Of a DNA stretch of 64,000 nt, positions 8,515 to 25,983 are shown in pieces (the stretch's first letter is position 1; each line of letters begins with the position of its first letter). Made by a program: the position numbers and the translations under genes. A model generated the notes under the pieces. It was not told the origin of the DNA and ran no database searches. It saw only the letters and a program-made list of their open reading frames with translations. Location: positions 12,840-76,839 of IMG/VR virus record IMGVR_UViG_3300037465_000037; one strand, given 5' to 3'. This DNA is from a virus.

Positions 8515-9390
8515 ATGGATACTGACACATTGAGAGAAGAAACACCACAAAGCAAGAATAAAATGATGGAAGGACTAGATTGCATAGACATTCCATTCTT
8601 ACTATTACCAAGTGAAGTACAATCCTCTCGGTGTCTTCCATACCCTGTTGCTATTCGTTTACTTAGAGCCAAGAATGAGCTATCGAAGAATCAATTCAGT
8701 AGTGCTCTGAGTGTCATCGTAGAGCACCACTCCAGAGTCAAGGTCAAGACGATAAAACTCTGGGAGAATGGGATCGCCACACCAAGAATCAAGATTAGGA
8801 CGGCGGTTGATAAACTGGTAGCAGACTCGGCGTTTACTATCGACTGGGAGAAACCAGATCGAAACGAGCTATCCAAAATAATCCGGCAGATTGGATACAA
8901 GCACTTGGACATCGAGCTATTCAAGACATTGGTTGAGAAGCTGAATACGTTAGAGCCAAGACAAGTTAGTAAATCTCTAAGACTTATTCCGACTGACACT
9001 ACAAAGTGGATTGAACAATACAAATCCTGGCGGTTAGTGAAGGTAGTAGGTGGTAACGATGAAAGTGGCAAGACACTACTGCAAATGTTTGGGTTGGACG
9101 TAATTATCTTCCTTGAGAAGTGGTTGCCGTTGTATGTGAGAAGAACACTACCTAGCGTCTTGGAGATCAATCCTCAGCTACTTAGGAAGTGGCGCTGCCA
9201 GTTTTGTTATCCTGGACAGCAAAAGCGGAATGAAATGACGAAGTTGGTAACGGAAGCATTTGCTAGTTTGGTGAAGGAAGATGTTGTGGTGAGAATCAAC
9301 TGGCATTCTTATCCTAGTGATTTGGGGAGTAAATGCACTGCTTCTTCTAACAGAAGCCCGTTCTTCCTCACTGCTAAGAGGTTGTGGTAG
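8515..9390 (+). CDS. XRE/Cro-like HTH transcriptional regulator, possibly with two HTH domains
   Basis: LRAKNELSKNQFSSAL...TIKLWENGIATP is XRE-like; a second HTH-like segment LPSVLEINPQLLRKW...P lies near the C-terminus; divergent from the leftward genes. Confidence 0.55.
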   Translation: MDTDTLREETPQSKNKMMEGLDCIDIPFLLLPSEVQSSRCLPYPVAIRLLRAKNELSKNQFSSALSVIVEHHSRVKVKTIKLWENGIATPRIKIRTAVDKLVADSAFTIDWEKPDRNELSKIIRQIGYKHLDIELFKTLVEKLNTLEPRQVSKSLRLIPTDTTKWIEQYKSWRLVKVVGGNDESGKTLLQMFGLDVIIFLEKWLPLYVRRTLPSVLEINPQLLRKWRCQFCYPGQQKRNEMTKLVTEAFASLVKEDVVVRINWHSYPSDLGSKCTASSNRSPFFLTAKRLW

Positions 9391-9564
9391 TATGTTGGTG
9401 ATGCTTGATCAAGAAAGTAGGAGAATGATATACAATAGCGGACGCTCAAGCGAGTATATATACAGAGAGTTAGAGAACAATGAGAATTGATGAAGAGCAA
9501 AAACAATGATTGTGCGAGCAACGGTCCATGGCAACTCATGCAGGGGTGGACGCACCGTGCCTAC

Positions 9565-9589
9565 GGCCGCCGTCTCGATTCCGGCGGCC
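9565..9589 (+). other. GC-rich hairpin with a T-loop-like loop, followed by ATCTCCA
   Basis: GGCCGCCG-TCTCGATTC-CGGCGGCC is a perfect 8-bp stem in a non-coding gap. Confidence 0.55.
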
Positions 9590-9738
9590 ATCTCCAAGGC
9601 GGGCTGCCGGTAGCTGACCTATGAACATCGTAACGGTGCTGAACCGGCTTTTCTGGGCTTGGAATTGGGTGGCAGGTAAATGCGGGTATAGGGACCAGGC
9701 GCGGAGGCTTTTGGCTCCTCTCTCCCTACCAGAAATAA

Positions 9739-9758
9739 TTTTCTCCTACCAGGGGAAA
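9739..9758 (+). repeat. Dispersed motif, variant copy
   Basis: TTTTCT CCTAC C AGGGG AAA; intergenic; a partial copy TCTCCCTACCAG sits at 9721. Confidence 0.7.
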
Positions 9759-9828
9759 GCCTGGGTTGATGCGAAAGCTTAGTTGTGGTTGTCGAGCTAG
9801 CATGAGCTAATATGAGAGAGTAAGAGTA

Positions 9829-10794
9829 ATGTCGAGCAAGAAGAAGGAAGATGCTGCATCTGGTACGGCCAACCTTCATTGCTGCGCTATTGACATTTGC
9901 ATCTACCATGCTGGATGCATGGATGGGTTAGTCGCAGCATGGTTGATTCGTGTTTTCAATCCAGATGCGCAATTCATTCCGGCGCAGTACGGAGATAAAC
10001 TCCTAGATTGTGTCGATGGGAAGAATGTGATTGTGGTTGACTTCTCATATCCGCGCGCAGTCTGTGAGGAGTTAAAGAGACGCGCCAAGCAAGTGTTGAT
10101 CTTAGATCATCACAAGACTGCTGAGGAAGACCTGCTTGGGTTGGATTATGCGATTTTCAATATCGAAATGAGCGGAGCGCAGCTGGTTGCGCATTGGTTG
10201 AATGGATTTAGTTTGGATGAAGAGAAAGCTAGCAAGTTGAACTATGCTTGCAAGTGGTTGATTGATTACACTGCTGACCGAGACTTGTGGGCTTGGAAGT
10301 TGCCGTATACTAAGTCCATCAACGCTTGCTTGAGGAGTTACGAGTTTAGTTTCCAGGGCTTGAATGCAGCATTGGATGACTTCGCTACCAATGGCATGCA
10401 TATGTTCACTGAGCAGGGTTTAGCTATTATGAGGCAAAATCAGAGATATGTTGATGATCATGTTGTATATGCTAAACGGAATAAGTTCCGCTTGCTGCCA
10501 GATATCATCGAGACGAGAAGAGATACTGTGTATGTAGCTTATGGTGTGAATGCGACGGTATTGCAAAGTGATATCTGCGATGCGATTTTGAAAGTCACAG
10601 ATGCGGATATTGCTTTTACATGGTCAACGAAGTGGAATGGAATGAGCGATGAGTGGTTGTTTAGCTTGAGGAGTCGCAAGGGCAGTGATGTTGATGTGAG
10701 TGTGATTGCCAGAAAGTTCGGCGGTGGTGGGCATAAGCATGCGGCGGGGTTCAAGAATATCGGCATGCCTGTGAGCTTCGTGGGGGTATATTAA
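9829..10794 (+). CDS. DHH/DHHA1-family phosphoesterase (NrnA-like)
   Basis: YHAGCMDG, VVDFS, ILDHHKT, DRDLW, SLRS and GGGGHKHAAGF motifs. Confidence 0.9.
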   Translation: MSSKKKEDAASGTANLHCCAIDICIYHAGCMDGLVAAWLIRVFNPDAQFIPAQYGDKLLDCVDGKNVIVVDFSYPRAVCEELKRRAKQVLILDHHKTAEEDLLGLDYAIFNIEMSGAQLVAHWLNGFSLDEEKASKLNYACKWLIDYTADRDLWAWKLPYTKSINACLRSYEFSFQGLNAALDDFATNGMHMFTEQGLAIMRQNQRYVDDHVVYAKRNKFRLLPDIIETRRDTVYVAYGVNATVLQSDICDAILKVTDADIAFTWSTKWNGMSDEWLFSLRSRKGSDVDVSVIARKFGGGGHKHAAGFKNIGMPVSFVGVY

Positions 10795-10797
10795 GTC

Positions 10798-11349
10798 ATG
10801 ACTCACTTTAACATCGTGGATTATAAAGTTGACTGGAAGAACACATCCATCTACGTCGATGGTGGCGTCATTGGGCGCAACCCGTCTAAACTCGGCGGGA
10901 CATGGGCTTATGTTGTTGTTGACAACCAAACGGACAGCATTATCCAATCCGATAGCGGGGTTGTCTTACCAGAGCATTTCAGCATCGTGCCGCGTATTGA
11001 GATTACGAATAACATTTCTGAGTATTACGCAATGATGAAAGGATTGCTAGCCGTGCCTACTGGTTATAACGGGACTATCTATAGCGATTCAGGTGTGACG
11101 ATTGGGCGGTTCTTCAACGGGTGGAAAAACACGAACGTACCGAATAGTCTGGTAGCGACAGGGCTGAGCCTAGCGAAGACGTTAGGCGAGAATGTGAAGG
11201 CTGTGCTATTAGACGGCCATCCGACCAAAGCGCAACTTGCCGCCGGTGTTGGTAAGCGCGGGCATCCGGTCAGCAAGTGGAATGTGTATGTCGATGCAAA
11301 GTGCAGCGAGGAAGCCAAGAAGTTCTTGAGTGGGCATAAGAAAGCATAA
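10798..11349 (+). CDS. rnhA: Ribonuclease HI-like protein
   Basis: YVDGG, TNNISEY, IYSDS and WNVYVD supply the D-E-D-D catalytic set in RNase H order. Confidence 0.8.
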   Translation: MTHFNIVDYKVDWKNTSIYVDGGVIGRNPSKLGGTWAYVVVDNQTDSIIQSDSGVVLPEHFSIVPRIEITNNISEYYAMMKGLLAVPTGYNGTIYSDSGVTIGRFFNGWKNTNVPNSLVATGLSLAKTLGENVKAVLLDGHPTKAQLAAGVGKRGHPVSKWNVYVDAKCSEEAKKFLSGHKKA

Positions 11350-11362
11350 GAAGTATTGAGGC

Positions 11363-11680
11363 ATGCTGTCAATGAATATGGTTGGTAAGCATGAATGGAA
11401 TGATGTAATACAAACGTGCGTTATCTGTGGTGTAAGCAAGCGGGATTACTTACTGTATAAGGTTGACGGAATTTGCAGACCTGTCGCTGGATGTATTAAA
11501 TGTACTAAGGTGGACGAACTAGTAAGTAACGAGAGTTTAGCTGTTTTCGTCCCCCTCTCTCCTCCCCAGTCAATTTTCCCTTACCGGGAGAAGGCCGAGG
11601 TTGATTGTTCGAAGTGCTTTCATTGTAATGGCGACGGGTGCACGAAGTGTGATCTAACTGGCATGGCGTTACATGACTGA
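11363..11680 (+). CDS. Cys-rich hypothetical protein
   Basis: Several CxxC pairs; overlaps the next start. Confidence 0.5.
   Translation: MLSMNMVGKHEWNDVIQTCVICGVSKRDYLLYKVDGICRPVAGCIKCTKVDELVSNESLAVFVPLSPPQSIFPYREKAEVDCSKCFHCNGDGCTKCDLTGMALHD
11574..11593 (+). repeat. Dispersed motif, variant copy
   Basis: TTTTCC CTTAC C GGGAG AAG, inside a CDS. Confidence 0.6.
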
Positions 11681-12551: not shown

Positions 12552-13457
12552 ATGCGTACGAATTGCCCGAAGCCACAGAAGATCCACAATTGCTATTTGC
12601 GAGAGGTTCTATCTTATGAGTCTCTCGACTATGATTACGAGGCTAAATTACTACGCCTCGTAGCGCAAGGCGATCAAGCAGCCCGAGACATACTCATTAA
12701 GGCAAATTTGAAGTTCGTCGTGTTTATTGCTAAGGCTTACGCTAAGATTGATACAGCGCAATACTACGATTTGGTTAGCGAAGGCAACATTGGTTTGATG
12801 TTCGCTGTTGACAATTTCGATCCTGCCAAGGGGTATTTTCGTATCTATTTGAAGCGCGTGATTATCAGTAAGATGCTGCGGTTCATCTCAAGTTCAAAAG
12901 AGGTACGCATACCTGTGTATATCCCTGAGTGGATCTTGCCGGCATGGATTCGAGAAAAGACGAGGATGGAAACGCAGTTTGGAAGGATGGTGACTGATGA
13001 GGAAGTATCTGATTCGCTGAAGCTTAGCGAGAACGTTCGGAATGGGATCAAATTCTTGAGGGGACAGCATGTGCCAATGGACCCGATGCTAAAGATTAGC
13101 AGGCCCGATCAGGATCCGGTCGAGGAGTTGGCAATAAATGAGCTGCTGGAAATAGCGTATGCTGAATTGAGGAAGATGGATGAAAAGACTAAGACGATTA
13201 TGAGGAAAAGATACGGGTTCGTTGGTATGAAGCCAAAGACGAAACGCGAGATTGGTGAGGAGATGAACATTAGCAAACAACGAGTGCATCAACTTGAGCA
13301 AGAAGCATTGCGAAGGTTGTCGAAAGTCTTGTTTGGCATGAGCAGGAATGGCGCGAATGGTAAGCATAAGAAGAATGTGAATGGCAATGGCAATAATGAC
13401 AATCATCATAACGCTATCACTAGGAAGATTGTACGAACTTTAATGGTTGGAGAATGA
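12552..13457 (+). CDS. RNA polymerase sigma-70 family factor
   Basis: Region 1.2 YLREV, region 2 LIKANLKFVVFIAKAY...DLVSEGNIGLMFAVDNFDP, region 3 EVRIP, region 4 TKREIGEEMNISKQRVHQLEQEALRRL; GGGAGG RBS. Confidence 0.92.
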   Translation: MRTNCPKPQKIHNCYLREVLSYESLDYDYEAKLLRLVAQGDQAARDILIKANLKFVVFIAKAYAKIDTAQYYDLVSEGNIGLMFAVDNFDPAKGYFRIYLKRVIISKMLRFISSSKEVRIPVYIPEWILPAWIREKTRMETQFGRMVTDEEVSDSLKLSENVRNGIKFLRGQHVPMDPMLKISRPDQDPVEELAINELLEIAYAELRKMDEKTKTIMRKRYGFVGMKPKTKREIGEEMNISKQRVHQLEQEALRRLSKVLFGMSRNGANGKHKKNVNGNGNNDNHHNAITRKIVRTLMVGE

Positions 13458-13819: not shown

Positions 13820-14046
13820 TGAGCAAGTTATTGACCTGCATCTCATGTAACGGAGTGCGGCAAATGTGTTGCGGTGGCCGGAAGACCGACAAGCCTGCCA
13901 TTACGAAAGAGTTGAAAGAGCAATTGGTGACGAGTTGCGTGAAGTGTGCGAGTAAGGTGCGGTTTCGTCGGGCGCGTGGGGCAAATGGGAATCAGTATTT
14001 AGCTTACTGCACGAAGTGTGGCTGGACTGAGTGGGAAAAGAAATGA
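13819..14046 (+). CDS. Small zinc-ribbon-like protein
   Basis: CISC, CVKC and CTKC pairs. Confidence 0.5.
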   Translation: MSKLLTCISCNGVRQMCCGGRKTDKPAITKELKEQLVTSCVKCASKVRFRRARGANGNQYLAYCTKCGWTEWEKK

Positions 14047-14393
14047 GAACGATTTTCGTATTTGGTTCCAATACCGAAGGAAGGCATGGTGCTGGCGCTG
14101 CTTTGCACGCTCGTCAAAATAATGGAGCAGTCTACGGCCAGGCGAGAGGCTTACAAGGTGATTCGTGGGGCATTGTAACAAAAGACCTTGGAAGTGGCAA
14201 GAGGTCTGTAACACTTAATGATATAAAGACTCAGGTTGATGAATTGATAACATACGCAAACCAACATCCTGATGTAGTGTTTGAGGTAACAAGAATTGGT
14301 TGCGGGTTAGCCGGTTATATGGACCATGAGATTGCGCCGATGTTTGTTTCTGCTCCTGGGAACATGCGGCTTCCTTCTGGATGGCGAAAATGA
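14043..14393 (+). CDS. Macrodomain-like phage protein (A1S_2505-type)
   Basis: IFVFGSNTEGRHGAGAA and TRIGCGLAG correspond to the two Gly-rich macrodomain loops; ATGA overlap. Confidence 0.75.
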   Translation: MRTIFVFGSNTEGRHGAGAALHARQNNGAVYGQARGLQGDSWGIVTKDLGSGKRSVTLNDIKTQVDELITYANQHPDVVFEVTRIGCGLAGYMDHEIAPMFVSAPGNMRLPSGWRK

Positions 14394-14650
14394 AGCACCG
14401 TGCATACCATGCCACTACGATTGCATGTGCTAAAGAAATTCTTACGTCAGGTGTATTCAAGAAAGGGACTTACTTCGCGTTTAAGATTGAGGATGCACTC
14501 AAGTTTGCTGGACCTGTGATTTTTGTAGCTGAATTTGATGATGCCGGATTCCAGAATTGCGATCATGATAATGATTGGCAGTTTTGGCTCCGTGATGACT
14601 TTAGATTAGAAGAGCTTTGTTGCTCGTGGCATTGGAGGGGTGTGATATGA
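14390..14650 (+). CDS. Minimal ADP-ribosyltransferase-fold (H-Y clade)-like protein
   Basis: YHAT...AKEILTSGVF..GTYFA....DALKFAG matches the YHGT...G-F...YFA...A..Y/F pattern; ATGA overlap with the macrodomain-like gene. Confidence 0.5.
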   Translation: MKHRAYHATTIACAKEILTSGVFKKGTYFAFKIEDALKFAGPVIFVAEFDDAGFQNCDHDNDWQFWLRDDFRLEELCCSWHWRGVI

Positions 14651-15557: not shown

Positions 15558-16247
15558 ATGGGCGTGGCTGAGATCGAGGCACGGGCGAAGGAGAAGCTGG
15601 CTTCCATCGCTGAGGAGCGCGCTGCGCTTGAGGCGAAGCTGGAGGCATGCGACCACAAGGAGGGGCTCATCCGTGAGCTTCTCGGGCTCCAGGGTGAGGA
15701 GGGGCCGAAGCCTGCGAAGCGTGGTCGCAAGGCCAAGGAGTCCACCGGCGGTGCGAAGCGTGGTCGCAAGGGCAAGGGTGGAGGGCTGTCGGTTCGCCAG
15801 CGCATCCTCCATGTGCTCAACAAGGCGACTGCGCCGATGGCTGCTGGCGCGATTTACGAAGCTCTTGAGGCTGAGGGTGGTGGCACGTCCAAGGCGACGG
15901 TGTACACCACGCTCAACGGCATCAAGAAGGACTCGCTGGTGGACTCGCATGAGCACGAGGGGCGTGGCGATGCCTATGCGCTGAATGACGCTGGGCGTGC
16001 TGCGCTCCAGGCTGAGCCTGCCGAGGCTGAGGATGAGGCTGGCTCGACTGAGGCTGGCGATGCTCCCGCTGAGGGCACTGCTGCGTCTGCTGATGCGAGT
16101 GCGAGTGCGGCCGGCGAGGCTGGCAACGGCAACGACGAGCCCAAGGGGAAGCGTGGCCGCAAGGCGAAGGCGAAGGACGGAGAGGCGGGTTCGCCTGAGC
16201 CCGAGCCGGTTGGGGCAGTCGCCGGGCCGGACAACTCGCCCTTCTAG
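15558..16247 (+). CDS. Nucleoid-like DNA-binding protein (coiled coil + KRGRK repeats + winged helix + acidic tail)
   Basis: N-terminal heptads; KRGRK three times; LSVRQRILHVL...AGAIYEAL...SKATVYTTLNGIKKDSLV is winged-helix-like; strongly GC3-rich codons. Confidence 0.65.
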   Translation: MGVAEIEARAKEKLASIAEERAALEAKLEACDHKEGLIRELLGLQGEEGPKPAKRGRKAKESTGGAKRGRKGKGGGLSVRQRILHVLNKATAPMAAGAIYEALEAEGGGTSKATVYTTLNGIKKDSLVDSHEHEGRGDAYALNDAGRAALQAEPAEAEDEAGSTEAGDAPAEGTAASADASASAAGEAGNGNDEPKGKRGRKAKAKDGEAGSPEPEPVGAVAGPDNSPF

Positions 16248-17144: not shown

Positions 17145-17691
17145 CTATCTCATCCATCTTGATGAGGAAGAGTTTGGTCGTCGGTCGGTAAACGTTCCGA
17201 GCACCAAACTCGATTTCATTGCTGAGTGGGTCCGGCTACTCTTCCGCTTAGATAACATTGCCCGCGACCCTGATGCTAACCATTCTGTTCGCGCGCGTGT
17301 CTTGCGCGAAATTGGTATTTGCATGAAGGAAATTCAAACCTTGATGGAGCAGCATTCAAAGGAAGAGAATAAGGAAGAAGCTATTAGTATTGAGGAGATG
17401 GTGCAGAAGAGCCCGGACAAAGCTCGTGAGTTGATTATGAGTCACATGAGTGAGTTGAATAGGTTGTTGTGCATGATTGAGTTGAATGGGAATGAAGATA
17501 CCAAGAATGGTGATGGTGATGGATCTAATGGTGAGTCTGTTGCTACTGCGAATGCATTGATTAAGCGATCTGCGCCTAAGCCGGTTTTGCGTCAGCATGA
17601 AGTTGATGAGCCCGAGGATGATGATGAGTCCGAATCTGATGATGATGATTCCTCCGAGTCCAATGCATCGCTCAATGCAGATGAATGGTAG
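17116..17691 (+). CDS. Hypothetical protein, terminase small subunit candidate
   Basis: Helical protein with an acidic tail, overlapping the terL start; the call is positional only. Confidence 0.35.
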   Translation: MLPLPTLNRNYLIHLDEEEFGRRSVNVPSTKLDFIAEWVRLLFRLDNIARDPDANHSVRARVLREIGICMKEIQTLMEQHSKEENKEEAISIEEMVQKSPDKARELIMSHMSELNRLLCMIELNGNEDTKNGDGDGSNGESVATANALIKRSAPKPVLRQHEVDEPEDDDESESDDDDSSESNASLNADEW

Positions 17692-19187
17692 CCGCCGCTG
17701 TTGCTACCGCTACTCCTGCGTGCGTTGATTTCGGTCGCACGCTCTTAGGTGGTATTTCAAGGGAAGATATCGAACGCGCTAAGTGCGCGCTCGACCCTTG
17801 GTATTGCATTAGTCGCTACGTCCACACCATAGACGACAACGGGGATGAATTACTCTTCCCTAACTATCCATATCTCAAGAAGTATATTTACGCTATTCAC
17901 AACAAGCGTAAGGTTCTCTGCTTCAAGACGCGCCAAATGCTAATCTCGTGGGCGTCTGTTGCTTATGCTTACCATCTTGCTACTTTCAAGTCCAATCAAA
18001 CTATTCTCTTCATTTCTAAGAAGAAGCCTGACGCGAATGAACTGGTCAAGCGAGTTCATGATATTCACCGTAACTTCCCTGATTTCCTCAAGATGCCATT
18101 CAAGCGTGGTCCTAAATCGCGCGTCAAGATTGAGTTTGCCAATAGCTCGCGTATTTTCTCTATGCCTTGCGTTGATGATGCAGCGCGTGGGTATACCGTG
18201 AACCTCGGCTTTCTTGACGAGATTGCGTTCTATAAGAATGCCAAGGGTGTATATCAAGGTTGTCGCCCGTCGTTAGGTAAAGGCGGCCGACTGGTTATGG
18301 TGTCAACGCCCAATGGCGATGCGCGTGGCAAGTTTTTCCGTGAGATGGTCAAAGACCATGTAAAATATGGATTTCATCGTATGGATGTAGATTTCACTAT
18401 GAATCCCCGGAAGGATGAACAATGGCTAAAAGAAGAGCGACAGAACCTCACTGAGATGCAATGGAAATACGAGCATGGACTTTACCTTGGCGTTGCTGGA
18501 GCCGGTGCAGTGTTCAAGAAGTACGACTCAGACATACATGTAATCGAGGCATTTGAGATTCCTTCAAACTGGAAGAAGTATCGCACGATTGACTTCGGTC
18601 CTAATCTTGCTTGTATTTGGGTGGCTGAAGATCCGCATGGGCGCTACTATGTTTACCGTGAGCTCTACATTAAAGGCAGGACAGTCGAAGATAGGGCGCG
18701 TATGATTATTGCACATTCGCACGATGAAAACTACGAATTAACGATTGGCGACGAAGCCGATCCACAGGCAATGACAGACTTCGCTTCGCATGGTATTTAT
18801 TGTATCCCGTCTGGCACTAAGGATACTATTGACTCCATTGCGATCCTTGAGAAGCTTTTTGAAGATGTTGGGCAATTCCAGATTTTCGATACATGCAAGA
18901 AAACTGCTGAATCTTTTGAAGATTACATGGGTGATGAGAATGGTGTCCCAGTCAAGCATCAATTCGACCACGGTATTGACGCTATTCGTTATCTGATTCG
19001 CAAGCTAAAGAAGATGAAGGTTTCCCACGCGCGCGAGATGGTTGAACAAACCGATAAGGGAAGCCTACTGCCTAATGATATGGTAATATCTTCAGAGTTA
19101 GGTATTGATGTGGGTCGCGGGTTCAATGAGAAGACATTTGGATTTGGCGAAGGGCATGGTGATCTATCGAAGGAGGTAGGTCTATAA
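17685..19187 (+). CDS. terL: Terminase large subunit
   Basis: KTRQMLISW Walker A variant, GFLDEIAF Walker B, VSTPNG coupling motif, nuclease IDFG...DHGIDAIRY. Confidence 0.93.
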   Translation: MVAAAVATATPACVDFGRTLLGGISREDIERAKCALDPWYCISRYVHTIDDNGDELLFPNYPYLKKYIYAIHNKRKVLCFKTRQMLISWASVAYAYHLATFKSNQTILFISKKKPDANELVKRVHDIHRNFPDFLKMPFKRGPKSRVKIEFANSSRIFSMPCVDDAARGYTVNLGFLDEIAFYKNAKGVYQGCRPSLGKGGRLVMVSTPNGDARGKFFREMVKDHVKYGFHRMDVDFTMNPRKDEQWLKEERQNLTEMQWKYEHGLYLGVAGAGAVFKKYDSDIHVIEAFEIPSNWKKYRTIDFGPNLACIWVAEDPHGRYYVYRELYIKGRTVEDRARMIIAHSHDENYELTIGDEADPQAMTDFASHGIYCIPSGTKDTIDSIAILEKLFEDVGQFQIFDTCKKTAESFEDYMGDENGVPVKHQFDHGIDAIRYLIRKLKKMKVSHAREMVEQTDKGSLLPNDMVISSELGIDVGRGFNEKTFGFGEGHGDLSKEVGL

Positions 19188-19542: not shown

Positions 19543-19781
19543 GTTGAATGCTCGTTCTGCTGATCATATTGGTCAGATTGTTATGACTGTTGCTCTTCAG
19601 TGTTTAGTTTTTTCGAAGATTAAAGACCCAATGGAGAAGTCTGAGTGTATTGAGAATCTTGTACTGCGTGCGCGTAGTGAGATTCTTCGAGTCATTAGTG
19701 AGAACTACGATGGCAATACTACTAATTCTAATTCAAATGGTAATATTGTTTCGCAGTTTCGCGTAGTTGAGGAGTATTCGA

Positions 19782-22433
19782 ATGCTACTACTCACTAGGC
19801 AACACAACCAACATCGCAACTTGCAAGCGCAGGAAGATACTTCCAGCACACTCACTCCTCAGCGCAATCCGGCCACTCTTCCTATTGAGCGTGCTGGAAA
19901 TGGTATTCATCCATTTACTGACGACACTCCTTCCAATGGTGTTGATGTTCCCAACATTGATGATAATGTCAAGGCTGCGCTTAATTCTGGTAAGGTGCTC
20001 TCTCGTATTACTATTGATGAGTTCAACAATTTCCTCAGTGGTGATTTGATTTTCGAGACTACGGATACGCTGGTCCGTGAAAAGGGAATGCGTGTCCTTG
20101 ACAAGATGCTCGACCAAGATGCGGATATTAAAAACGCATATCATCTCAAGAAGGCGATGCGCTTATCCTCTGGATGGCGTATCGACCCTTATGATTGCAA
20201 GTGCGTCGAGTCGGAATTTTGGGCCGAGTTTGTTCGCTGGAACTTTGCTAATTTTCTAGAAACTTCGATTGATGCTTTTCTAATGAAGATGTGGGACGGC
20301 ATGCGACAGGGCTTCAAGGTTGCTGAGATTGTTTGGGATATCATTCCTGATGGCAAGTTCAAGGGGATGATTGGTATTCGGCGATTGATTGTTCGCAATT
20401 CTCGTAATTACTCATTCAAGGCACGCGACCTTTCGGGTGAGCTTGATCCATTTGGACTAATTGAAGGCATTTCGCCGACTGGTATGGAATCTGCTTATTA
20501 CGCTCCTCGTCGTTTGCCAGTTGATAAGTTTGTCATCTGGACTTACAACGCACTCGATGACGATATTCAATCTCGATTTGGCAATAGCGATTTTCGTGTG
20601 CTTTGGCGATACTTCTATGGTTCGCTAATCGCGCACACGCATCGCCTGCGGTCTGGTGAGACGTTTTCTCGTCCTAACGTTGTTGTGTCTCTTGAAGAGG
20701 GGATGTTCACCAAGAAACAGCAGGCCAAGATTCGTGATGATATGGGTGAGGTTTACAATCGTGTCGTGACCATCATTCCGAAGGGCGCAGAGTGGAAGCT
20801 CGTTGAGACTCAGCGTACTGAGCCGGGTATGCATGAGCTAATGAAGTTTCATTCTGAGCAGCTAGACAAGGGTCAACTACTTGGGCCTTTTGTTCAGGGT
20901 GCGCAAGAGCGCGGCGTAACTTTGATGAAGGCGCAATTCCAAACCTTTATCTTTGTTCTTGACTGGCTTGGCATTGACACTTCTCAGAATATCATGGGTC
21001 GGCAACTTATCCATCGGTTGATTAACCTTAATACTAATTCTAAGCTTTATCCTAAGTTCGTCATGCCTAAGCTTTCCAAGAATAGTGAGTTGATGGGGAC
21101 GTTCATTAAGGATTTAGTGGAGGCTGGTGTAATTAGTCCGACCGAGGAATGGATTCGTCCGTTCTTGGATATCCCTGCCCCCAATTCTGACGATGGTGCG
21201 AACCCTGTTGGCGATGGTGATGTTGGCAATATTGATGATGAAGGGCAGGCTGATGAGGTTAACAAAATTGCTGATGCAGCTGATGGTAATGGTGGTGGTG
21301 TTGGTGATCCTAATGCCGACCCACCTGGCGAGAATCCTACTCGTCAAATGGTTCTCGCTCTTTCTGCGTCTACTACTGATAGCAGCAATCATGAGCCTCG
21401 CATTTCAATTGCAAGTCCAGAGTCTTATCTTGAGCTTTCGCTGGAGCATGGGATTCGTGAGATTGGTAAGGTTCTCCCTAAGGATTTCATTTCTATCACA
21501 CCTGGATCTTTAGGTGTTATCACAGAGCTCGACAATGGTGAGGCAAAGGTCTATCCAATTACTAGCACTACTGGTCGGTCTGTCATGGATATTTGCAAAT
21601 CCTTGAAGTCATACATTCAGCATCGTCGGGATATGAAGTTGCACGTAATTGAGCATATTGGAGTGTTGGAGAATCGGCCAGTGTTTCGGCGCTTGGCTGT
21701 GATCTCTCCTCCAACGTCGAATGCTGTAGTCAATTACATCGAAGTCGATGATGCTAACGCCAGTAACAACGTTCTTGCAGATGGTGTTGACATCAATCGT
21801 TCTGCTAAGGCGATTATTCGTGATGGGCAAGAGCGCATCCTTGTGCTCAAGGATAAGGGCACTCTGTTCTGGGATTTCCCTGGTGGGCATATGCAAGGTG
21901 ATGAAACCTTAGAAGATGCCGTGCGGCGCGAAGTTGAAGAGGAGTGCGGAATGCGTGTCAGTGCATCGCATCATCTTTTCACTGAGACGCTCAAACTAGG
22001 CGACGAAATGCGTCCGGTTGATTTCTTCAAGTGCGATGCGAATGGCGATATCAAGCTCTCGGATGAGCATACTGATTCTAAGTTTGCTACTCCGACTGAA
22101 CTACGCGAGTTGAACATGGGTGCGTTTGCTCCGCTCCTTGATCGTCTTATCGGCGACAAGCCGCAGAAACTCGCTGAGCTTCGTTCTAAGTCTACTAATG
22201 ATCGCACTGGTTTAGTTGTGCAAACGCTGATCCTAGACCGTGCGACATTCAATACTCTCGATGAAGCTAAGAAGTGGGTTACTTCTCATGGCTTCAAGAT
22301 TCACAAAGAGCCGGATATCACTGCTAAGTCATACCGCTTCCGCCAGGAAGATCCGTCCAGGTTCGTCCGTGGTTCATTCAGGACGGTCCTGATTCGCTCT
22401 GGTGTCCAGGCGGTTGTTGCTCGCTTGAAGTAG
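19782..22433 (+). CDS. Portal protein (DUF935/Mu gp29-like) with a C-terminal extension containing a Nudix hydrolase
   Basis: Portal-like N-terminal ~470 aa directly after terL (GFKVAEIVW, DKFVIWTY..SRFGNSDF); perfect Nudix box GHMQGDETLEDAVRREVEEECGM. Start at ATG 19782 behind GAGGAG. Confidence 0.85.
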   Translation: MLLLTRQHNQHRNLQAQEDTSSTLTPQRNPATLPIERAGNGIHPFTDDTPSNGVDVPNIDDNVKAALNSGKVLSRITIDEFNNFLSGDLIFETTDTLVREKGMRVLDKMLDQDADIKNAYHLKKAMRLSSGWRIDPYDCKCVESEFWAEFVRWNFANFLETSIDAFLMKMWDGMRQGFKVAEIVWDIIPDGKFKGMIGIRRLIVRNSRNYSFKARDLSGELDPFGLIEGISPTGMESAYYAPRRLPVDKFVIWTYNALDDDIQSRFGNSDFRVLWRYFYGSLIAHTHRLRSGETFSRPNVVVSLEEGMFTKKQQAKIRDDMGEVYNRVVTIIPKGAEWKLVETQRTEPGMHELMKFHSEQLDKGQLLGPFVQGAQERGVTLMKAQFQTFIFVLDWLGIDTSQNIMGRQLIHRLINLNTNSKLYPKFVMPKLSKNSELMGTFIKDLVEAGVISPTEEWIRPFLDIPAPNSDDGANPVGDGDVGNIDDEGQADEVNKIADAADGNGGGVGDPNADPPGENPTRQMVLALSASTTDSSNHEPRISIASPESYLELSLEHGIREIGKVLPKDFISITPGSLGVITELDNGEAKVYPITSTTGRSVMDICKSLKSYIQHRRDMKLHVIEHIGVLENRPVFRRLAVISPPTSNAVVNYIEVDDANASNNVLADGVDINRSAKAIIRDGQERILVLKDKGTLFWDFPGGHMQGDETLEDAVRREVEEECGMRVSASHHLFTETLKLGDEMRPVDFFKCDANGDIKLSDEHTDSKFATPTELRELNMGAFAPLLDRLIGDKPQKLAELRSKSTNDRTGLVVQTLILDRATFNTLDEAKKWVTSHGFKIHKEPDITAKSYRFRQEDPSRFVRGSFRTVLIRSGVQAVVARLK

Positions 22434-22463
22434 TGAGCGCATTCACCAATCAAGAAATCTTCC

Positions 22464-22491
22464 TTGACGACCATTTACGATCATGTAGTAT
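22464..22491 (+). promoter_or_regulatory. Sigma-70-like promoter for the head operon
   Basis: TTGACG-N16-TAGTAT in the gap between portal and protease. Confidence 0.5.
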
Positions 22492-22620
22492 CTCGCAGCA
22501 GCACATGCAGTAGTCATACCTAGTTGCGCTAGTTACTTCGCTGCGACCACTGCCAACGCTGCATCGCTGGCGGTTTTATCTGCCTGCTGGATGCGCTCCT
22601 TTCGTTGGCTTTTCGGTAAC

Positions 22621-24618
22621 ATGGCGCTTTCGACCGAGGAAAAGAACAACCTGCCTGATTCCTCCTTTGCGCTCATCCTTCCGGGTGGCGAAAAGGACGA
22701 TTCTGGTCGCACGGTTCCTCGCTCGAATCGCAAGTTCCCGTACAAGGATGCTGACGGGAAATTGCTATTTGAAAACGCTGTCAATGCTTTAGCGATTCTC
22801 AACGGTGCGCGTGGAGGCACTGAAGTTAGCGATGCCGACAAGCGCAAGGCTTGGAATACTATCGTAGCTGCAATCAAGTCTGAGCGATCTGATTATCAGC
22901 CTCCTGAGCAACGTTTCTCTATCTATGATTTTCCGATGCCATTCCCAATTATGCTCGCTGAGCATGGGCATGGTATAGAGTGCAATGATAATGAGTGTCC
23001 TCGTCACATGGATGGCATGTGTGATGAAATGATGAAATTGGATAATGTTACTGATGTAGAGAAGCAGAAACTTGCTGAGATTCGCAAGAAGATCAAAGAC
23101 AAGAATCACACTAAGCAGGATGTTGCGTTTGTCAATATGATGATGCGTAAGCTCAACCTCGCGCAACTTGCTGCTTCGATTCCTTACTACATTTCTGACG
23201 AGTTTCCGCATTATCCTTTCAAGGGTGACTTCAAGAAGTTTTCGACCAGGCTTCAGCATCCGTTAAATCTTTGTAGTATTGCTGAGCAGGATTGCCCGTG
23301 TGTTGGTGCTGTCAACCTGCGGCACGCGGCGCATTCTTGCGATCATGCTAAGCATTTTGGTTGTCCCGTTTTCTTGCAAGACACTGTGTATGCTGATCCC
23401 AAGATGTTTGAGTCCGTCTTCAAATTCTACGATGATGGCACTGCGACCATTGACAAATACGAGGTTTTGAGTGAAGGTAGATGGAACGGTGAAGATTTCA
23501 GTGCTGCTTATCTCAAGCAACTTTCAGATAACTTCTCTCATCTGCGTGGGTACTTAGAAGTCCCGGTCAAGATTGGACATCACAGCGACCAGTCGTTACT
23601 CACCAATAGTGGTGAGGTTGCTGCTGGTTGGTTCCAGAATGTTTGGTATGAGTATACTCCTAAAGGTTGTAAGTTATTTTCCAAGGTGATTGGCATTCCG
23701 CGCAAGGTTGCTCTTCTAATGGAGAAGAACGGCCTGCGTCATCGCTCGCTAGAAATCTTCCGTAATTTCAAGGATCGTACTGGTAAGTCGATTGGTCCGA
23801 CGATTAAAGCATTGGCATTGCTGGGTGTGTCTACCCCAGCGGTCAAGGGTATGGAAACGCTTGATGATATATTGTCGCTGTACCTTGCGGACAACAACAC
23901 AGCAGACGTGCTTTGCGTTTCGCTGGAGGAGCCGAAAGTGTCTGACCAGAATCAGGGAAAGCAGTATTCGCAGGCTGAGGTTGATGCTCTCATCAAGAAG
24001 TTGAGTGATGAGAAGGATGCTCAACTGAAGCAGCAGGATGCGCAGATCAAGGCGCTCTCTGCGACTGCGACCGCTCTTTCCAATACGGTCAAACTTCAGC
24101 AGGTCGAGGGCTCGAAGATTGCTAACGAGCGTACTTACGAGTCGTTACTTGGGGAAGGCAAGCTCCTGCCGAAGCAGAAGGATCATTTCCTGATGCTGAT
24201 GCAGATGGTTGATGGCGTCGAGGATCATCTGAAGGCTGCCAAGTTGGAGTCGGTGTACTTCACTGGCTTGGCTTGGAATCCTGAGTCGATCAAGCTTTCT
24301 GTCAAGGAAGCCGACGACAAGGGTGTCATTAGTGATCGTCATTACAGCATCAAGGATCTGATTGTCAAGCTCTTCAGTATTGCAAACAAGCAGGTCGAGT
24401 TCGGTACGGTGTCGCGTGATACCGACCAGAAGAAGCAGAAGGACAACGCTGATAGCGGCAGCAATGATGGTCAGCAGTTGATGAGTGACCGTGCTGCTGA
24501 GTTGATGGCGAAGGATAAGGCGCTTAGCTTCGGCGATGCGCTGGCTCTCGCTAGTAAGCAACTCATCACGGAAGGCAAGCTGACGATTGCCGATGTGATC
24601 GGCGAGGAGATCAAGTAA
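22621..24618 (+). CDS. Prohead protease/scaffold (Mu I-like) with extra N-terminal domains
   Basis: EVLSEGRWNG...PVKIGHH...AAGW...HRSLEI...ALALLGVSTPAVKGM is Mu-type-protease-like; coiled-coil scaffold C-terminus; N-terminal LSTEEKNNLPDSSFA...RKFP module. Confidence 0.8.
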   Translation: MALSTEEKNNLPDSSFALILPGGEKDDSGRTVPRSNRKFPYKDADGKLLFENAVNALAILNGARGGTEVSDADKRKAWNTIVAAIKSERSDYQPPEQRFSIYDFPMPFPIMLAEHGHGIECNDNECPRHMDGMCDEMMKLDNVTDVEKQKLAEIRKKIKDKNHTKQDVAFVNMMMRKLNLAQLAASIPYYISDEFPHYPFKGDFKKFSTRLQHPLNLCSIAEQDCPCVGAVNLRHAAHSCDHAKHFGCPVFLQDTVYADPKMFESVFKFYDDGTATIDKYEVLSEGRWNGEDFSAAYLKQLSDNFSHLRGYLEVPVKIGHHSDQSLLTNSGEVAAGWFQNVWYEYTPKGCKLFSKVIGIPRKVALLMEKNGLRHRSLEIFRNFKDRTGKSIGPTIKALALLGVSTPAVKGMETLDDILSLYLADNNTADVLCVSLEEPKVSDQNQGKQYSQAEVDALIKKLSDEKDAQLKQQDAQIKALSATATALSNTVKLQQVEGSKIANERTYESLLGEGKLLPKQKDHFLMLMQMVDGVEDHLKAAKLESVYFTGLAWNPESIKLSVKEADDKGVISDRHYSIKDLIVKLFSIANKQVEFGTVSRDTDQKKQKDNADSGSNDGQQLMSDRAAELMAKDKALSFGDALALASKQLITEGKLTIADVIGEEIK

Positions 24619-24619
24619 C

Positions 24620-24988
24620 ATGAGTGCTGGCGTCACCCCTGGGAATCTGGTCGCTAGCTCCGCTATCACCAAGTTCCGCATTCTTGCGCTTGATACTTCT
24701 GATGAGCGATTGGTTGAGCATGCTGTGCTCGCTGCGACTCGTCCTATCGGCGTGTCTGAGGTTGACGTGCCGGAGGGCGAGGCTGTCACGTTCGAAGGCC
24801 GTGATGGCTATGTCACGGCTGTCGAGGCTGGTGAAGCCATCGCGGTTGGCGACGACGTTGTTGCCGGCCTTCTCGGCAAGGGCTTCGTCGGTGGCTCTGG
24901 TGATGAGGCGATTGGAACGGCTCTCACGTCGGCTTCGGCTGACGGTGAGATCGTCAACCTCCTCATCGCCAAGCGAGTCATTCCGTAG
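24620..24988 (+). CDS. Capsid decoration/cement protein (DUF2190-like)
   Basis: IGVS...GYVTAVEAGEAIAVGDDV...IGTALTSASADGEIV pattern; lies between protease and major capsid. Confidence 0.8.
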   Translation: MSAGVTPGNLVASSAITKFRILALDTSDERLVEHAVLAATRPIGVSEVDVPEGEAVTFEGRDGYVTAVEAGEAIAVGDDVVAGLLGKGFVGGSGDEAIGTALTSASADGEIVNLLIAKRVIP

Positions 24989-25062
24989 TTTTTAGTATTT
25001 CATACTCTGTCGCCTGCTCAATCAGGTAAGCAAGAGCAAGAGATCAAAGAGGTCCAACTGAA

Positions 25063-25983
25063 ATGCCCCCACTCAGTCGTGCTGATGTCCATGTTGACAC
25101 CGCGCTATCCAATGTCAGCCAGAAGCTCATGCTTCCTGACTTGGTTGCGTTCATCATCGCTCCCGTGGTTCCAGTCGTCAAGGAGTCTGACGTATACTGG
25201 AAGTTCGGGCGCGAGGAGATGCGTGACCTGAAGGGGCGCGACGTGCGCGGCTTGAAGGAGGAAGCTACTGTCTTCCGTTGGGAGCCGAGTGGCACCGAGG
25301 GATACGTCTGCGAAGAGCGTGCTCTCAAGGATTGTGTGCCGGATCGCGTTGTCACCAACAGTGACGCTGTGATCCGTCCGATGATCCGCGCCGTTGAGAA
25401 GCTCACCTACGCGCTGCGCCTTCAGCATGAGATTCGCATTGCAGATCTCATCGTCGGGCCGGCGACGACGGTGCCCGGTGCGCCGGTCGCCGTCAAGTGG
25501 GATGACCCGGCTGCCGACATCGAGGCTGATGTCAAGGACGCGAAGGAGACGGTGCGCCTTGCCATCGGTGTCGAGCCCAACACGATCATCATGTCGGCTG
25601 CGGTTGCCAATAAGGTCGTGGACTTCCTCAAGGCGTCGGCTGAAATCTCGATCCAGCAGCGAATCTCGCTGTTCGAGATGCCTGACGTGTGGCTGGGCAT
25701 GCGCGTGGTCGTGGTCAGGTCGCAGAAGAACACGGCTGAGGAGGGCGCTGCCGAGGTTATCGCCGATGTCTGGCCGGACACTGTGACGCTCGCCTGGATC
25801 AACCCGCGCCAGCCTGCGCTCGACGACGCTTCGCTAGTCTGGACGATCCGCTCTCGCGACTTCCGCGTCAAGCGGTGGCGTGCTGAGGAGCGAGATAGCA
25901 CATGGCTTCAGGCTGACTGGGTTCTCACCGAGAAGCTGGTCACTCCGACTGCTGGCTTCAATCTCGAAGACGTGCTCACCTAG
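25063..25983 (+). CDS. Major capsid protein
   Basis: 306 aa; DVHVDTALSNVS N-terminus; position in the head operon; strongest GC3 codon bias; followed by a long hairpin. Confidence 0.85.
   Translation: MPPLSRADVHVDTALSNVSQKLMLPDLVAFIIAPVVPVVKESDVYWKFGREEMRDLKGRDVRGLKEEATVFRWEPSGTEGYVCEERALKDCVPDRVVTNSDAVIRPMIRAVEKLTYALRLQHEIRIADLIVGPATTVPGAPVAVKWDDPAADIEADVKDAKETVRLAIGVEPNTIIMSAAVANKVVDFLKASAEISIQQRISLFEMPDVWLGMRVVVVRSQKNTAEEGAAEVIADVWPDTVTLAWINPRQPALDDASLVWTIRSRDFRVKRWRAEERDSTWLQADWVLTEKLVTPTAGFNLEDVLT

Follow-up and report, generated by a model that had tools for sequence, protein, structure and literature searches.

Nudix hydrolase domains joined to structural proteins of the phage head have been recorded before. 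Section 3.5.2 of Iyer, Burroughs, Anantharaman and Aravind (2022, Viruses 14:1977, PMC9503650) describes phage Nudix domains fused to MuF, portal and capsid peptidase proteins, and the passages there infer that such fused enzymes are packaged in the head and injected. Among sequenced phages, the portal of Burkholderia phage Bcep1 (gp18, NP_944326.1; also Bcep43 gp17 and Bcep781 gp17) carries a C-terminal Nudix domain and has been annotated in GenBank for two decades as 'portal protein ... similar to nudix hydrolase family proteins', while gp3 of Arthrobacter phage Sonali (QAY16116.1, 'portal and MuF-like fusion protein') holds a Nudix domain in the middle of its extension. The portal–Nudix fusion is thus already known from sequenced phages and was published in 2022; here, we describe a further example of it and no new class. 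The protein, P0001, is an 883-amino-acid (aa) portal encoded at positions 19782–22433 (+ strand, 883 codons, stop codon included) of a 64,000-nt stretch of DNA (the window), which was taken from positions 12,840–76,839 of IMG/VR virus record IMGVR_UViG_3300037465_000037, a linear record of 77,165 bp that is ~67 % complete by CheckV. In P0001, an intact Nudix domain forms a single insertion in a C-terminal slot that varies among related portals, and we put the probability that this domain is an enzyme packaged in the virion and delivered to the host at roughly 0.55.

P0001 resembles the fusions treated by Iyer et al. (2022, PMC9503650) in that its Nudix domain is an in-frame part of a head protein whose gene neighbours that of the terminase. 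The passages in section 3.5.2 of that paper assign the fused domains to the T4 NudE-like clade, whereas the profile of the P0001 Nudix subfamily matched Bcep1 gp18 (E value 3.8e-19 over 102 columns, D-E-H-T motif included) far better than T4 NudE (hhalign: E value 6.9e-10, but only 61 columns around the Nudix box); Sonali gp3 was matched with an E value of 1.5e-15. Set against the same passages, P0001 also differs in possessing a small domain and a terminal module that belong to no Pfam or PHROG family. Bcep1 gp18 combines a portal with a C-terminal Nudix domain of the P0001 subtype, D-E-H-T motif included, but it is a 698-aa protein of the Phage_portal_3 type that lacks both the small domain and the terminal module and is followed by a separate MuF gene. 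Sonali gp3, like P0001, encodes the Nudix domain within one chain with the portal; unlike P0001, it is of the Phage_portal type, ends in MuF in place of a basic module and does not display the E-H motif. More broadly, the T4 internal proteins, Alt and the polyvalent proteins (Iyer et al. 2017, cited in PMC9503650) are head-loaded enzymes delivered with the DNA, the same concept as the one proposed here for P0001. T4 cargo is loaded by means of an N-terminal capsid-targeting sequence that is removed by gp21, whereas in P0001 the portal itself would be the vehicle, and only one enzymatic domain was detected in P0001 as opposed to the several that are strung together in polyvalent virion proteins.

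The preliminary description of the window, made from the sequence alone, had proposed a single 883-aa frame comprising a portal, an acidic linker, a domain of no known family, a Nudix domain and a terminal domain, and most of this outline was borne out. Translation of 19782–22433 revealed no internal stop. The open frame extends upstream to a TTG at 19767, and the ATG at 19782 is preceded, 8 nt upstream, by a GAGGAG ribosome-binding site (19768–19773, +). No strong internal ribosome-binding site and start for a separate Nudix protein was found in the gene. A 47.7-kb Logan contig, generated by another assembler from the probable source run (a freshwater metagenome), showed 0 differences and 0 gaps over 19700–22600; this contig is not independent of the window, whereas two hot-spring metagenomes from other studies are, and their fragments differed from the window by substitutions and two 6-nt in-frame insertions or deletions only, two of the fragments crossing aa 611–674. 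The hot-spring matches are short contigs and provide no evidence of habitat. Those covering the end of the Nudix domain and the terminal module (22088–22380) are identical to the window or one base off, and the pieces across the portal and linker are only ~88–95 % alike to it. The guanine plus cytosine (GC) content is even across the open reading frame (ORF), at 0.44–0.49. Within the 77-kb record, P0001 matched only itself, and it is a genuine, single-copy gene for the sole portal of a tailed phage that has not been cultured and whose head module is Mu-like.

The portal core is of the Mu type (aa 104–459, 20091–21158, +) and was identified by Pfam as PF06074 (DUF935; E value 6.7e-19, 68.8 bits against a curated cut-off of 23.9). 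It is followed by a Gly/Asp/Asn-rich acidic linker (aa ~466–546, 21177–21419, +) that is predicted to be disordered: its length and sequence differ between aligned relatives, aa 520–564 were modelled with a predicted local distance difference test (pLDDT) score below 50, and a related strain carries a 6-nt in-frame deletion at 21229. Next comes a lineage-specific small alpha/beta domain (aa ~547–654, 21420–21743, +) with the motif E-x-D-N-G ... G-R ... F-R, for which AlphaFold2 predicted the order strand-strand-helix-strand-strand (pLDDT 80–90). The preliminary description had anticipated a domain here of ~140 aa; the domain itself is real and conserved in the lineage, but it measures ~100 aa. 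It returned no match in Pfam, PHROGs or a PDB sequence search, and a word-based search with it returned P0001 alone. Structure searches with a model of the C-terminal part, comprising the small domain and the terminal module, were similarly uninformative: no Foldseek match in the PDB reached E≤0.001, and BFVD and the ESM Atlas (including the Atlas feature search) gave only unnamed viral proteins. The neighbours returned by VIA-align (2H phosphoesterase halves, AcrIF9, Dmd, DUF54 and a subtilisin propeptide) were rejected as unconvincing, because their best Z score of 5.7 lies in the range that common small alpha/beta arrangements give.

The Nudix domain was detected by Pfam at aa 673–776 (21798–22109, +; PF00293, E value 1.1e-13 with the whole protein and 3.9e-15 with the excised part). 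As had been read from the sequence at the outset, its Nudix box GX5EX7REUXEEXGU (aa 702–724, 21885–21953, +) is complete, with every required position filled (G702-x5-E708-x7-R716 E717 V-x-E720 E721-x-G723 M724, the final U being Met). In an alignment of 72 relatives (A8), R716, E717, E720 and E721 are invariant. The same alignment revealed a subfamily motif 3′ of the box, L-S-D-E-H-T (aa 759–764, 22056–22073, +), in which E762 never varies and conservation reaches at least 90 % at S760 and H763. Outside the box, the subfamily keeps a W-D-[LF]-P-G-G-H motif as well as this downstream S-x-E-H motif. An AlphaFold2 model built from the 72-sequence alignment has the alpha/beta/alpha Nudix fold with a core pLDDT of 91–98. 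The top Foldseek match in the PDB was 1vc8, Thermus Ndx1, a diadenosine hexaphosphate (Ap6A) hydrolase (E value 3.1e-10, template modelling (TM) score 0.81), followed among the nearest relatives by archaeal MutT, Bdellovibrio RppH (BdRppH, root-mean-square deviation 1.9–2.4), NudG (E. coli ORF135), NudI and E. coli MutT, the top relatives being compact enzymes of about 125 residues. The domain looks catalytically active, given the unchanged box residues in all 72 relatives, the confident model and a PDB search headed by Nudix hydrolases. Judged by its predicted fold, ADP-ribose is no more likely a substrate than are nucleoside or deoxynucleoside triphosphate (NTP/dNTP) derivatives, dinucleoside polyphosphates or RNA 5′ ends. 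The preliminary description leaned towards ADP-ribose and NAD; the nearest solved relatives are instead compact enzymes of the MutT, RppH and Ap6A-hydrolase types. Cyclic oligonucleotide signals are poor candidates because they contain no pyrophosphate bond, whereas signals derived from ADP-ribose keep one. A single-sequence scan of GenBank phages with the Nudix domain found nothing.

Comparison with related portals suggests how the domain came to be where it is. Six portals of the P0001 lineage (P0003 to P0008) are 35–44 % identical to it in a full-length alignment, and the portal part of a seventh, P0114, is 48 % identical over aa 71–472. All portals of the lineage share the portal core, a variable acidic linker and the ~100-aa E-x-D-N-G domain; the latter is kept in P0003 to P0008, P0114 and the portal of locus L004 and was, among all the sequences fetched, confined to this lineage. 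Beyond it the proteins diverge: P0003, P0007 and the L004 portal end after the small domain, P0004 and P0114 continue with the terminal module only, and P0005 (the portal of locus L002) and P0006 continue with MuF. In a three-way alignment of P0001, P0004 and P0114 (A7), the Nudix cassette (aa ~654–800, 21741–22181, +) is missing from the latter two and appears as one clean insertion of ~150 aa at the boundary between the small domain and the terminal module. Because the Nudix domain is a single insertion and the lineage portals differ after the small domain, the portal C-terminus in this lineage behaves as a plug-in cargo slot. In P0008 (837 aa, from an ENA metagenome), the small domain runs into a Major Facilitator Superfamily (MFS) transporter domain, a join that probably reflects either a chimera in the contig or the decayed junction of a prophage. 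Cys-rich mini-domains lie between portal and cargo in several relatives, such as the inserts before the small domain in P0003 and P0004. In L002, the next large gene after the portal–MuF gene (8972–11665 of that locus, 897 aa), occupying the place expected for a protease-scaffold gene, encodes an ATP-dependent DNA ligase domain (aa 582–776).

The cassette also occurs outside this lineage. A word-based search for longer proteins retrieved P0157, a 1041-aa Portal_Mu and NUDIX protein from a metagenome-assembled genome (GCA_025464665.1, locus L007). Its Nudix domain is 64 % identical to that of P0001 over 123 aa, whereas its portal part displays no BLASTP similarity to the P0001 portal, suggesting that the cassette was exchanged or acquired separately and not inherited with the portal. 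P0157 thus resembles P0001 in joining a closely related Nudix domain to a Mu-type portal, but Cys-rich and hydrophobic Ala/Gly-rich segments replace the small domain, the terminal module is lacking and a separate MuF gene lies downstream. Its Cys-rich mini-domains are found at aa ~520–565 and ~725–790, and the hydrophobic Ala/Gly-rich segment, just ahead of the Nudix domain, is long and membrane-like. Overall, portals of three Pfam families were found to carry Nudix domains, and at least two of these families carry the E-H subtype. Sequence comparison places one Nudix subtype on two, and probably three, portals that are unrelated to one another. In a set of 80 IMG/VR loci whose Nudix domains are related to this one, the closest relatives lie almost entirely within longer proteins (34/37 in ORFs of 310–1858 aa), and most of the more distant ones stand alone, at ~140 aa. 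The Pfam partners identified in 39 long Nudix ORFs were PAP2 (7), MuF (4), 2H/LigT (3), DNA methylase (2) and topoisomerase I core, ART-PolyVal and S78 protease (1 each), the company that would be expected of virion-carried polyvalent proteins.

The chain ends in a basic module of ~75 aa (aa 809–883, 22206–22430, +) with a strand-helix-strands fold, which the preliminary description had also recognised as a domain. AlphaFold2 modelled it at pLDDT 97–98, and an exhaustive HMMER search with aa 800–883 returned 1294 cluster representatives at E≤1e-3. The module returned no Pfam or PHROG family match, and a tblastn search of 50,697 GenBank phage records gave no match for either the P0001 module or the most typical member of the family, nor did scans with degenerate patterns of the module bring one up; standalone viral clusters of 77–78 aa in the ESM Atlas matched it at TM 0.86–0.89. 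Its isoelectric point (pI) is 10.6 in P0001, with a median of 9.6 in 76 members, and conserved positions comprise Gln, His, Asp, Thr and three Arg. Among the matches listed, 166 copies of the module were placed as standalone proteins (33) or at N-terminal (32), C-terminal (35) or internal (66) positions, sometimes duplicated. Its Pfam partners in 98 longer proteins were predominantly head proteins, namely the XkdF-type prohead protease (28), the S78 prohead protease (16), portals of three families (8), capsid protein (2) and MuF, DUF2213 and Mu-like_Pro (1 each). Enzyme partners included 2H phosphoesterase, a DRAT-type ADP-ribosyltransferase, uracil-DNA glycosylase (UDG), cytosine methylase and pterin dehydratase. 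PHROGs agreed with this distribution, placing the module on head maturation proteases and protease–capsid fusions.

This may be an undescribed, very widespread module of the capsid interior, either a small DNA- or phosphate-binding internal head protein that rides on procapsid vehicles, which may comprise the protease, portal, MuF and capsid protein, or a general encapsidation tag. In the P0001 lineage it would mark the portal cargo slot in which a mobile 'virion Nudix' cassette was inserted. Of these two, the hitch-hiking internal head protein is favoured because standalone copies exist; the other possibility is a tag with affinity for either the capsid interior or the scaffold. A relationship to MuF was considered and rejected, as the module profile showed no similarity to the MuF of P0006 or to Bcep1 gp17. 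No second copy of the module was found in the window or in related loci. In locus L091 (6001–9903), a standalone 90-aa copy heads an operon and abuts genes for proteins of 867 and 341 aa that returned no Pfam or PHROG match. The record names of ten module-bearing proteins were all absent or 'hypothetical', and one module-bearing protein was matched by Pfam HIPIP.

Taken with its setting, this architecture most likely works as follows. The C-terminal extension of the portal would lie in the head interior, in up to twelve copies per particle, its flexible acidic tether leading to the fixed small domain of the lineage and then to the variable cargo slot, which in this phage holds a compact Nudix pyrophosphohydrolase cassette ahead of the ~75-residue basic module. 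Up to twelve copies of the enzyme would thereby enter each procapsid with the portal ring. The head maturation protease would probably free the Nudix copies from the ring, and these could then exit with the DNA and be active ahead of all phage gene expression. Packaging of the Nudix domain and its possible injection had also been suggested in the preliminary description, in agreement with the inference of Iyer et al. (2022). Their target in the newly infected cell may be an NTP/dNTP derivative, a dinucleoside polyphosphate, an RNA 5′ end or cap, or a signal of the ADP-ribose type. The interior location, which had been put forward in the preliminary description, is favoured by the comparative evidence, that is, by the variable slot, the partners of the cassette, the partners of the module and the portal of the Mu-like phage JBD30, whose crown and wing domains stay inside the capsid (PMC11445458). 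Proteolytic release is plausible because the acidic tether is disordered and a Mu-type protease is encoded next to the portal gene. In Mu itself, the portal gpH is reportedly trimmed at its C-terminus during head maturation.

Several points weigh against delivery of a packaged enzyme. A domain covalently joined to the portal cannot leave uncut, and no site for such a cut could be derived. Twelve extensions, each of ~46 kDa, burden the portal heavily, so some may be trimmed or lost. As regards the class of substrate, ADP-ribose pyrophosphatases are marked by a proline 15–16 residues after the Nudix box, and P0001 has none at either position, the first proline after M724 being P745 (+21). Neither the phage nor its host has been cultured, and the record reaches only ~67 % completeness; in the literature, we found no experiment on any portal–Nudix fusion and nothing usable on cleavage of Mu gpH, the Bcep781 Nudix domain or the proteomics of Nudix domains in virions. 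Finally, the attachment to a late structural gene is also what one would expect if the enzyme merely needed late, stoichiometric expression.

This last point leads to the explanation that best survives besides packaging and delivery, namely, that the Nudix domain acts only late in the producing cell and nothing is injected. The portal gene would then provide late timing and a fixed dose, or placement at the packaging vertex, and the enzyme might, for example, clean the nucleotide pool or remove alarmones or other signals during assembly. The gene order guarantees co-expression of the fusion with the head genes, the nearest solved relatives are of housekeeping type (MutT, NudG, NudI, RppH and Ap6A hydrolases) and neither a cleavage site nor an ejection signal was found in the fusion. 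However, MuF, prohead protease and polyvalent-type proteins, all vehicles of the capsid interior, carry this cassette too, and a cytoplasmic late enzyme needs no tether to three portal families, the more so as distant standalone Nudix relatives already exist for such a job. We therefore consider a purely late role, including the examples given, unlikely.

Less probable still is a mainly structural extension, an inner core or plug at the portal for organising or retaining the end of the DNA, in which the basic module would bind DNA and the Nudix domain would serve for nucleotide binding or as a spacer. MuF-type proteins such as SPP1 gp7 bind portal and DNA, and the module, which is basic and has conserved Arg, Gln, His and Thr residues, occupies the place where relatives of P0001 carry MuF. 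The invariance of the catalytic Nudix residues across 72 relatives nevertheless argues for catalysis, and the extension appears to be accessory, because the P0007 and L004 portals do without anything past the small domain.

That the fusion is an artefact, either an assembly chimera, as the preliminary description had allowed, or a sequencing error joining separate genes, is hardly credible and has largely been refuted already: the window does come from a metagenome assembly and the relative P0008 contains an implausible portal–MFS join, but a second assembler's contig covers the whole stretch without a difference, fragments from two other studies cross aa 611–674 and contain only in-frame insertions or deletions, GC content is even, P0004 and P0114 have the order of portal, small domain and terminal module in common with P0001, and complete genomes of cultured phages also hold portal–Nudix fusions.

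The genes around P0001 form a Mu-like head module. The portal gene is placed just 3′ of the gene for the terminase large subunit (17685–19187, +; phrog_2, E value 1.4e-29) and 5′ of the protease/scaffold and major capsid genes. The first of these (22591–24618, +; phrog_976, phrog_3894) encodes a 675-aa protein with a Cys/His-rich N-terminal part, a Mu-type head maturation protease (aa ~282–453) and a coiled-coil scaffold-like tail; no ribosome-binding site is visible ahead of its ATG at 22591. A 122-aa scaffold- or decoration-like protein is listed between this gene and that for the major head protein (25063–25983, +; phrog_1005, E value 2.6e-44), and a Mu Gp36-like gene comes after the capsid gene. 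The GC content reaches 0.57–0.63 across the major head protein gene (24700–25900), whereas the portal and protease genes have 0.44–0.49.

The first ~280 aa of the 675-aa protein (22591–23430) are Cys/His-rich and returned no Pfam match, a single weak PHROG match (phrog_9153, E value 0.013) and no similarity to MuF. The protein aligns with the post-portal gene of locus L003 only over aa 129–604 (30 % identity), and the terminal module of P0001 was not found in it. As had been noted beforehand, there is no MuF gene between portal and protease; across the whole 77-kb record, itself ~67 % complete, PF04233 (MuF) gave no match at E≤1. The Nudix domain of P0001 is the only one in the record. Two small coupled genes (14031–14650), which the preliminary description had likened to a macrodomain and an ADP-ribosyltransferase (ART), received no Pfam support for that reading: neither a Macro nor an ART match was found, and only a sub-threshold match to DUF7831 was obtained for the first gene. 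Elsewhere in the window, a sigma-70 family factor comprising regions 2, 3 and 4 is encoded at 12552–13457, and a protein of 229 aa with a winged helix of the FUR/PadR type at 15558–16247.

What this locus adds to the known portal–Nudix fusions is threefold. It provides a clean example of a Nudix cassette that appears as a mobile insert in a variable portal C-terminal slot, it points to the same Nudix subtype being distributed across unrelated portals, and it draws attention to an unannotated, widespread module that may mark proteins of the head interior. If that reading of the module is true, it could serve as a handle for locating packaged phage effectors in metagenomic data. Enzymes carried in the capsid act before phage gene expression, which would make the Nudix domain of P0001 and its relatives candidates for first-strike counter-defence.

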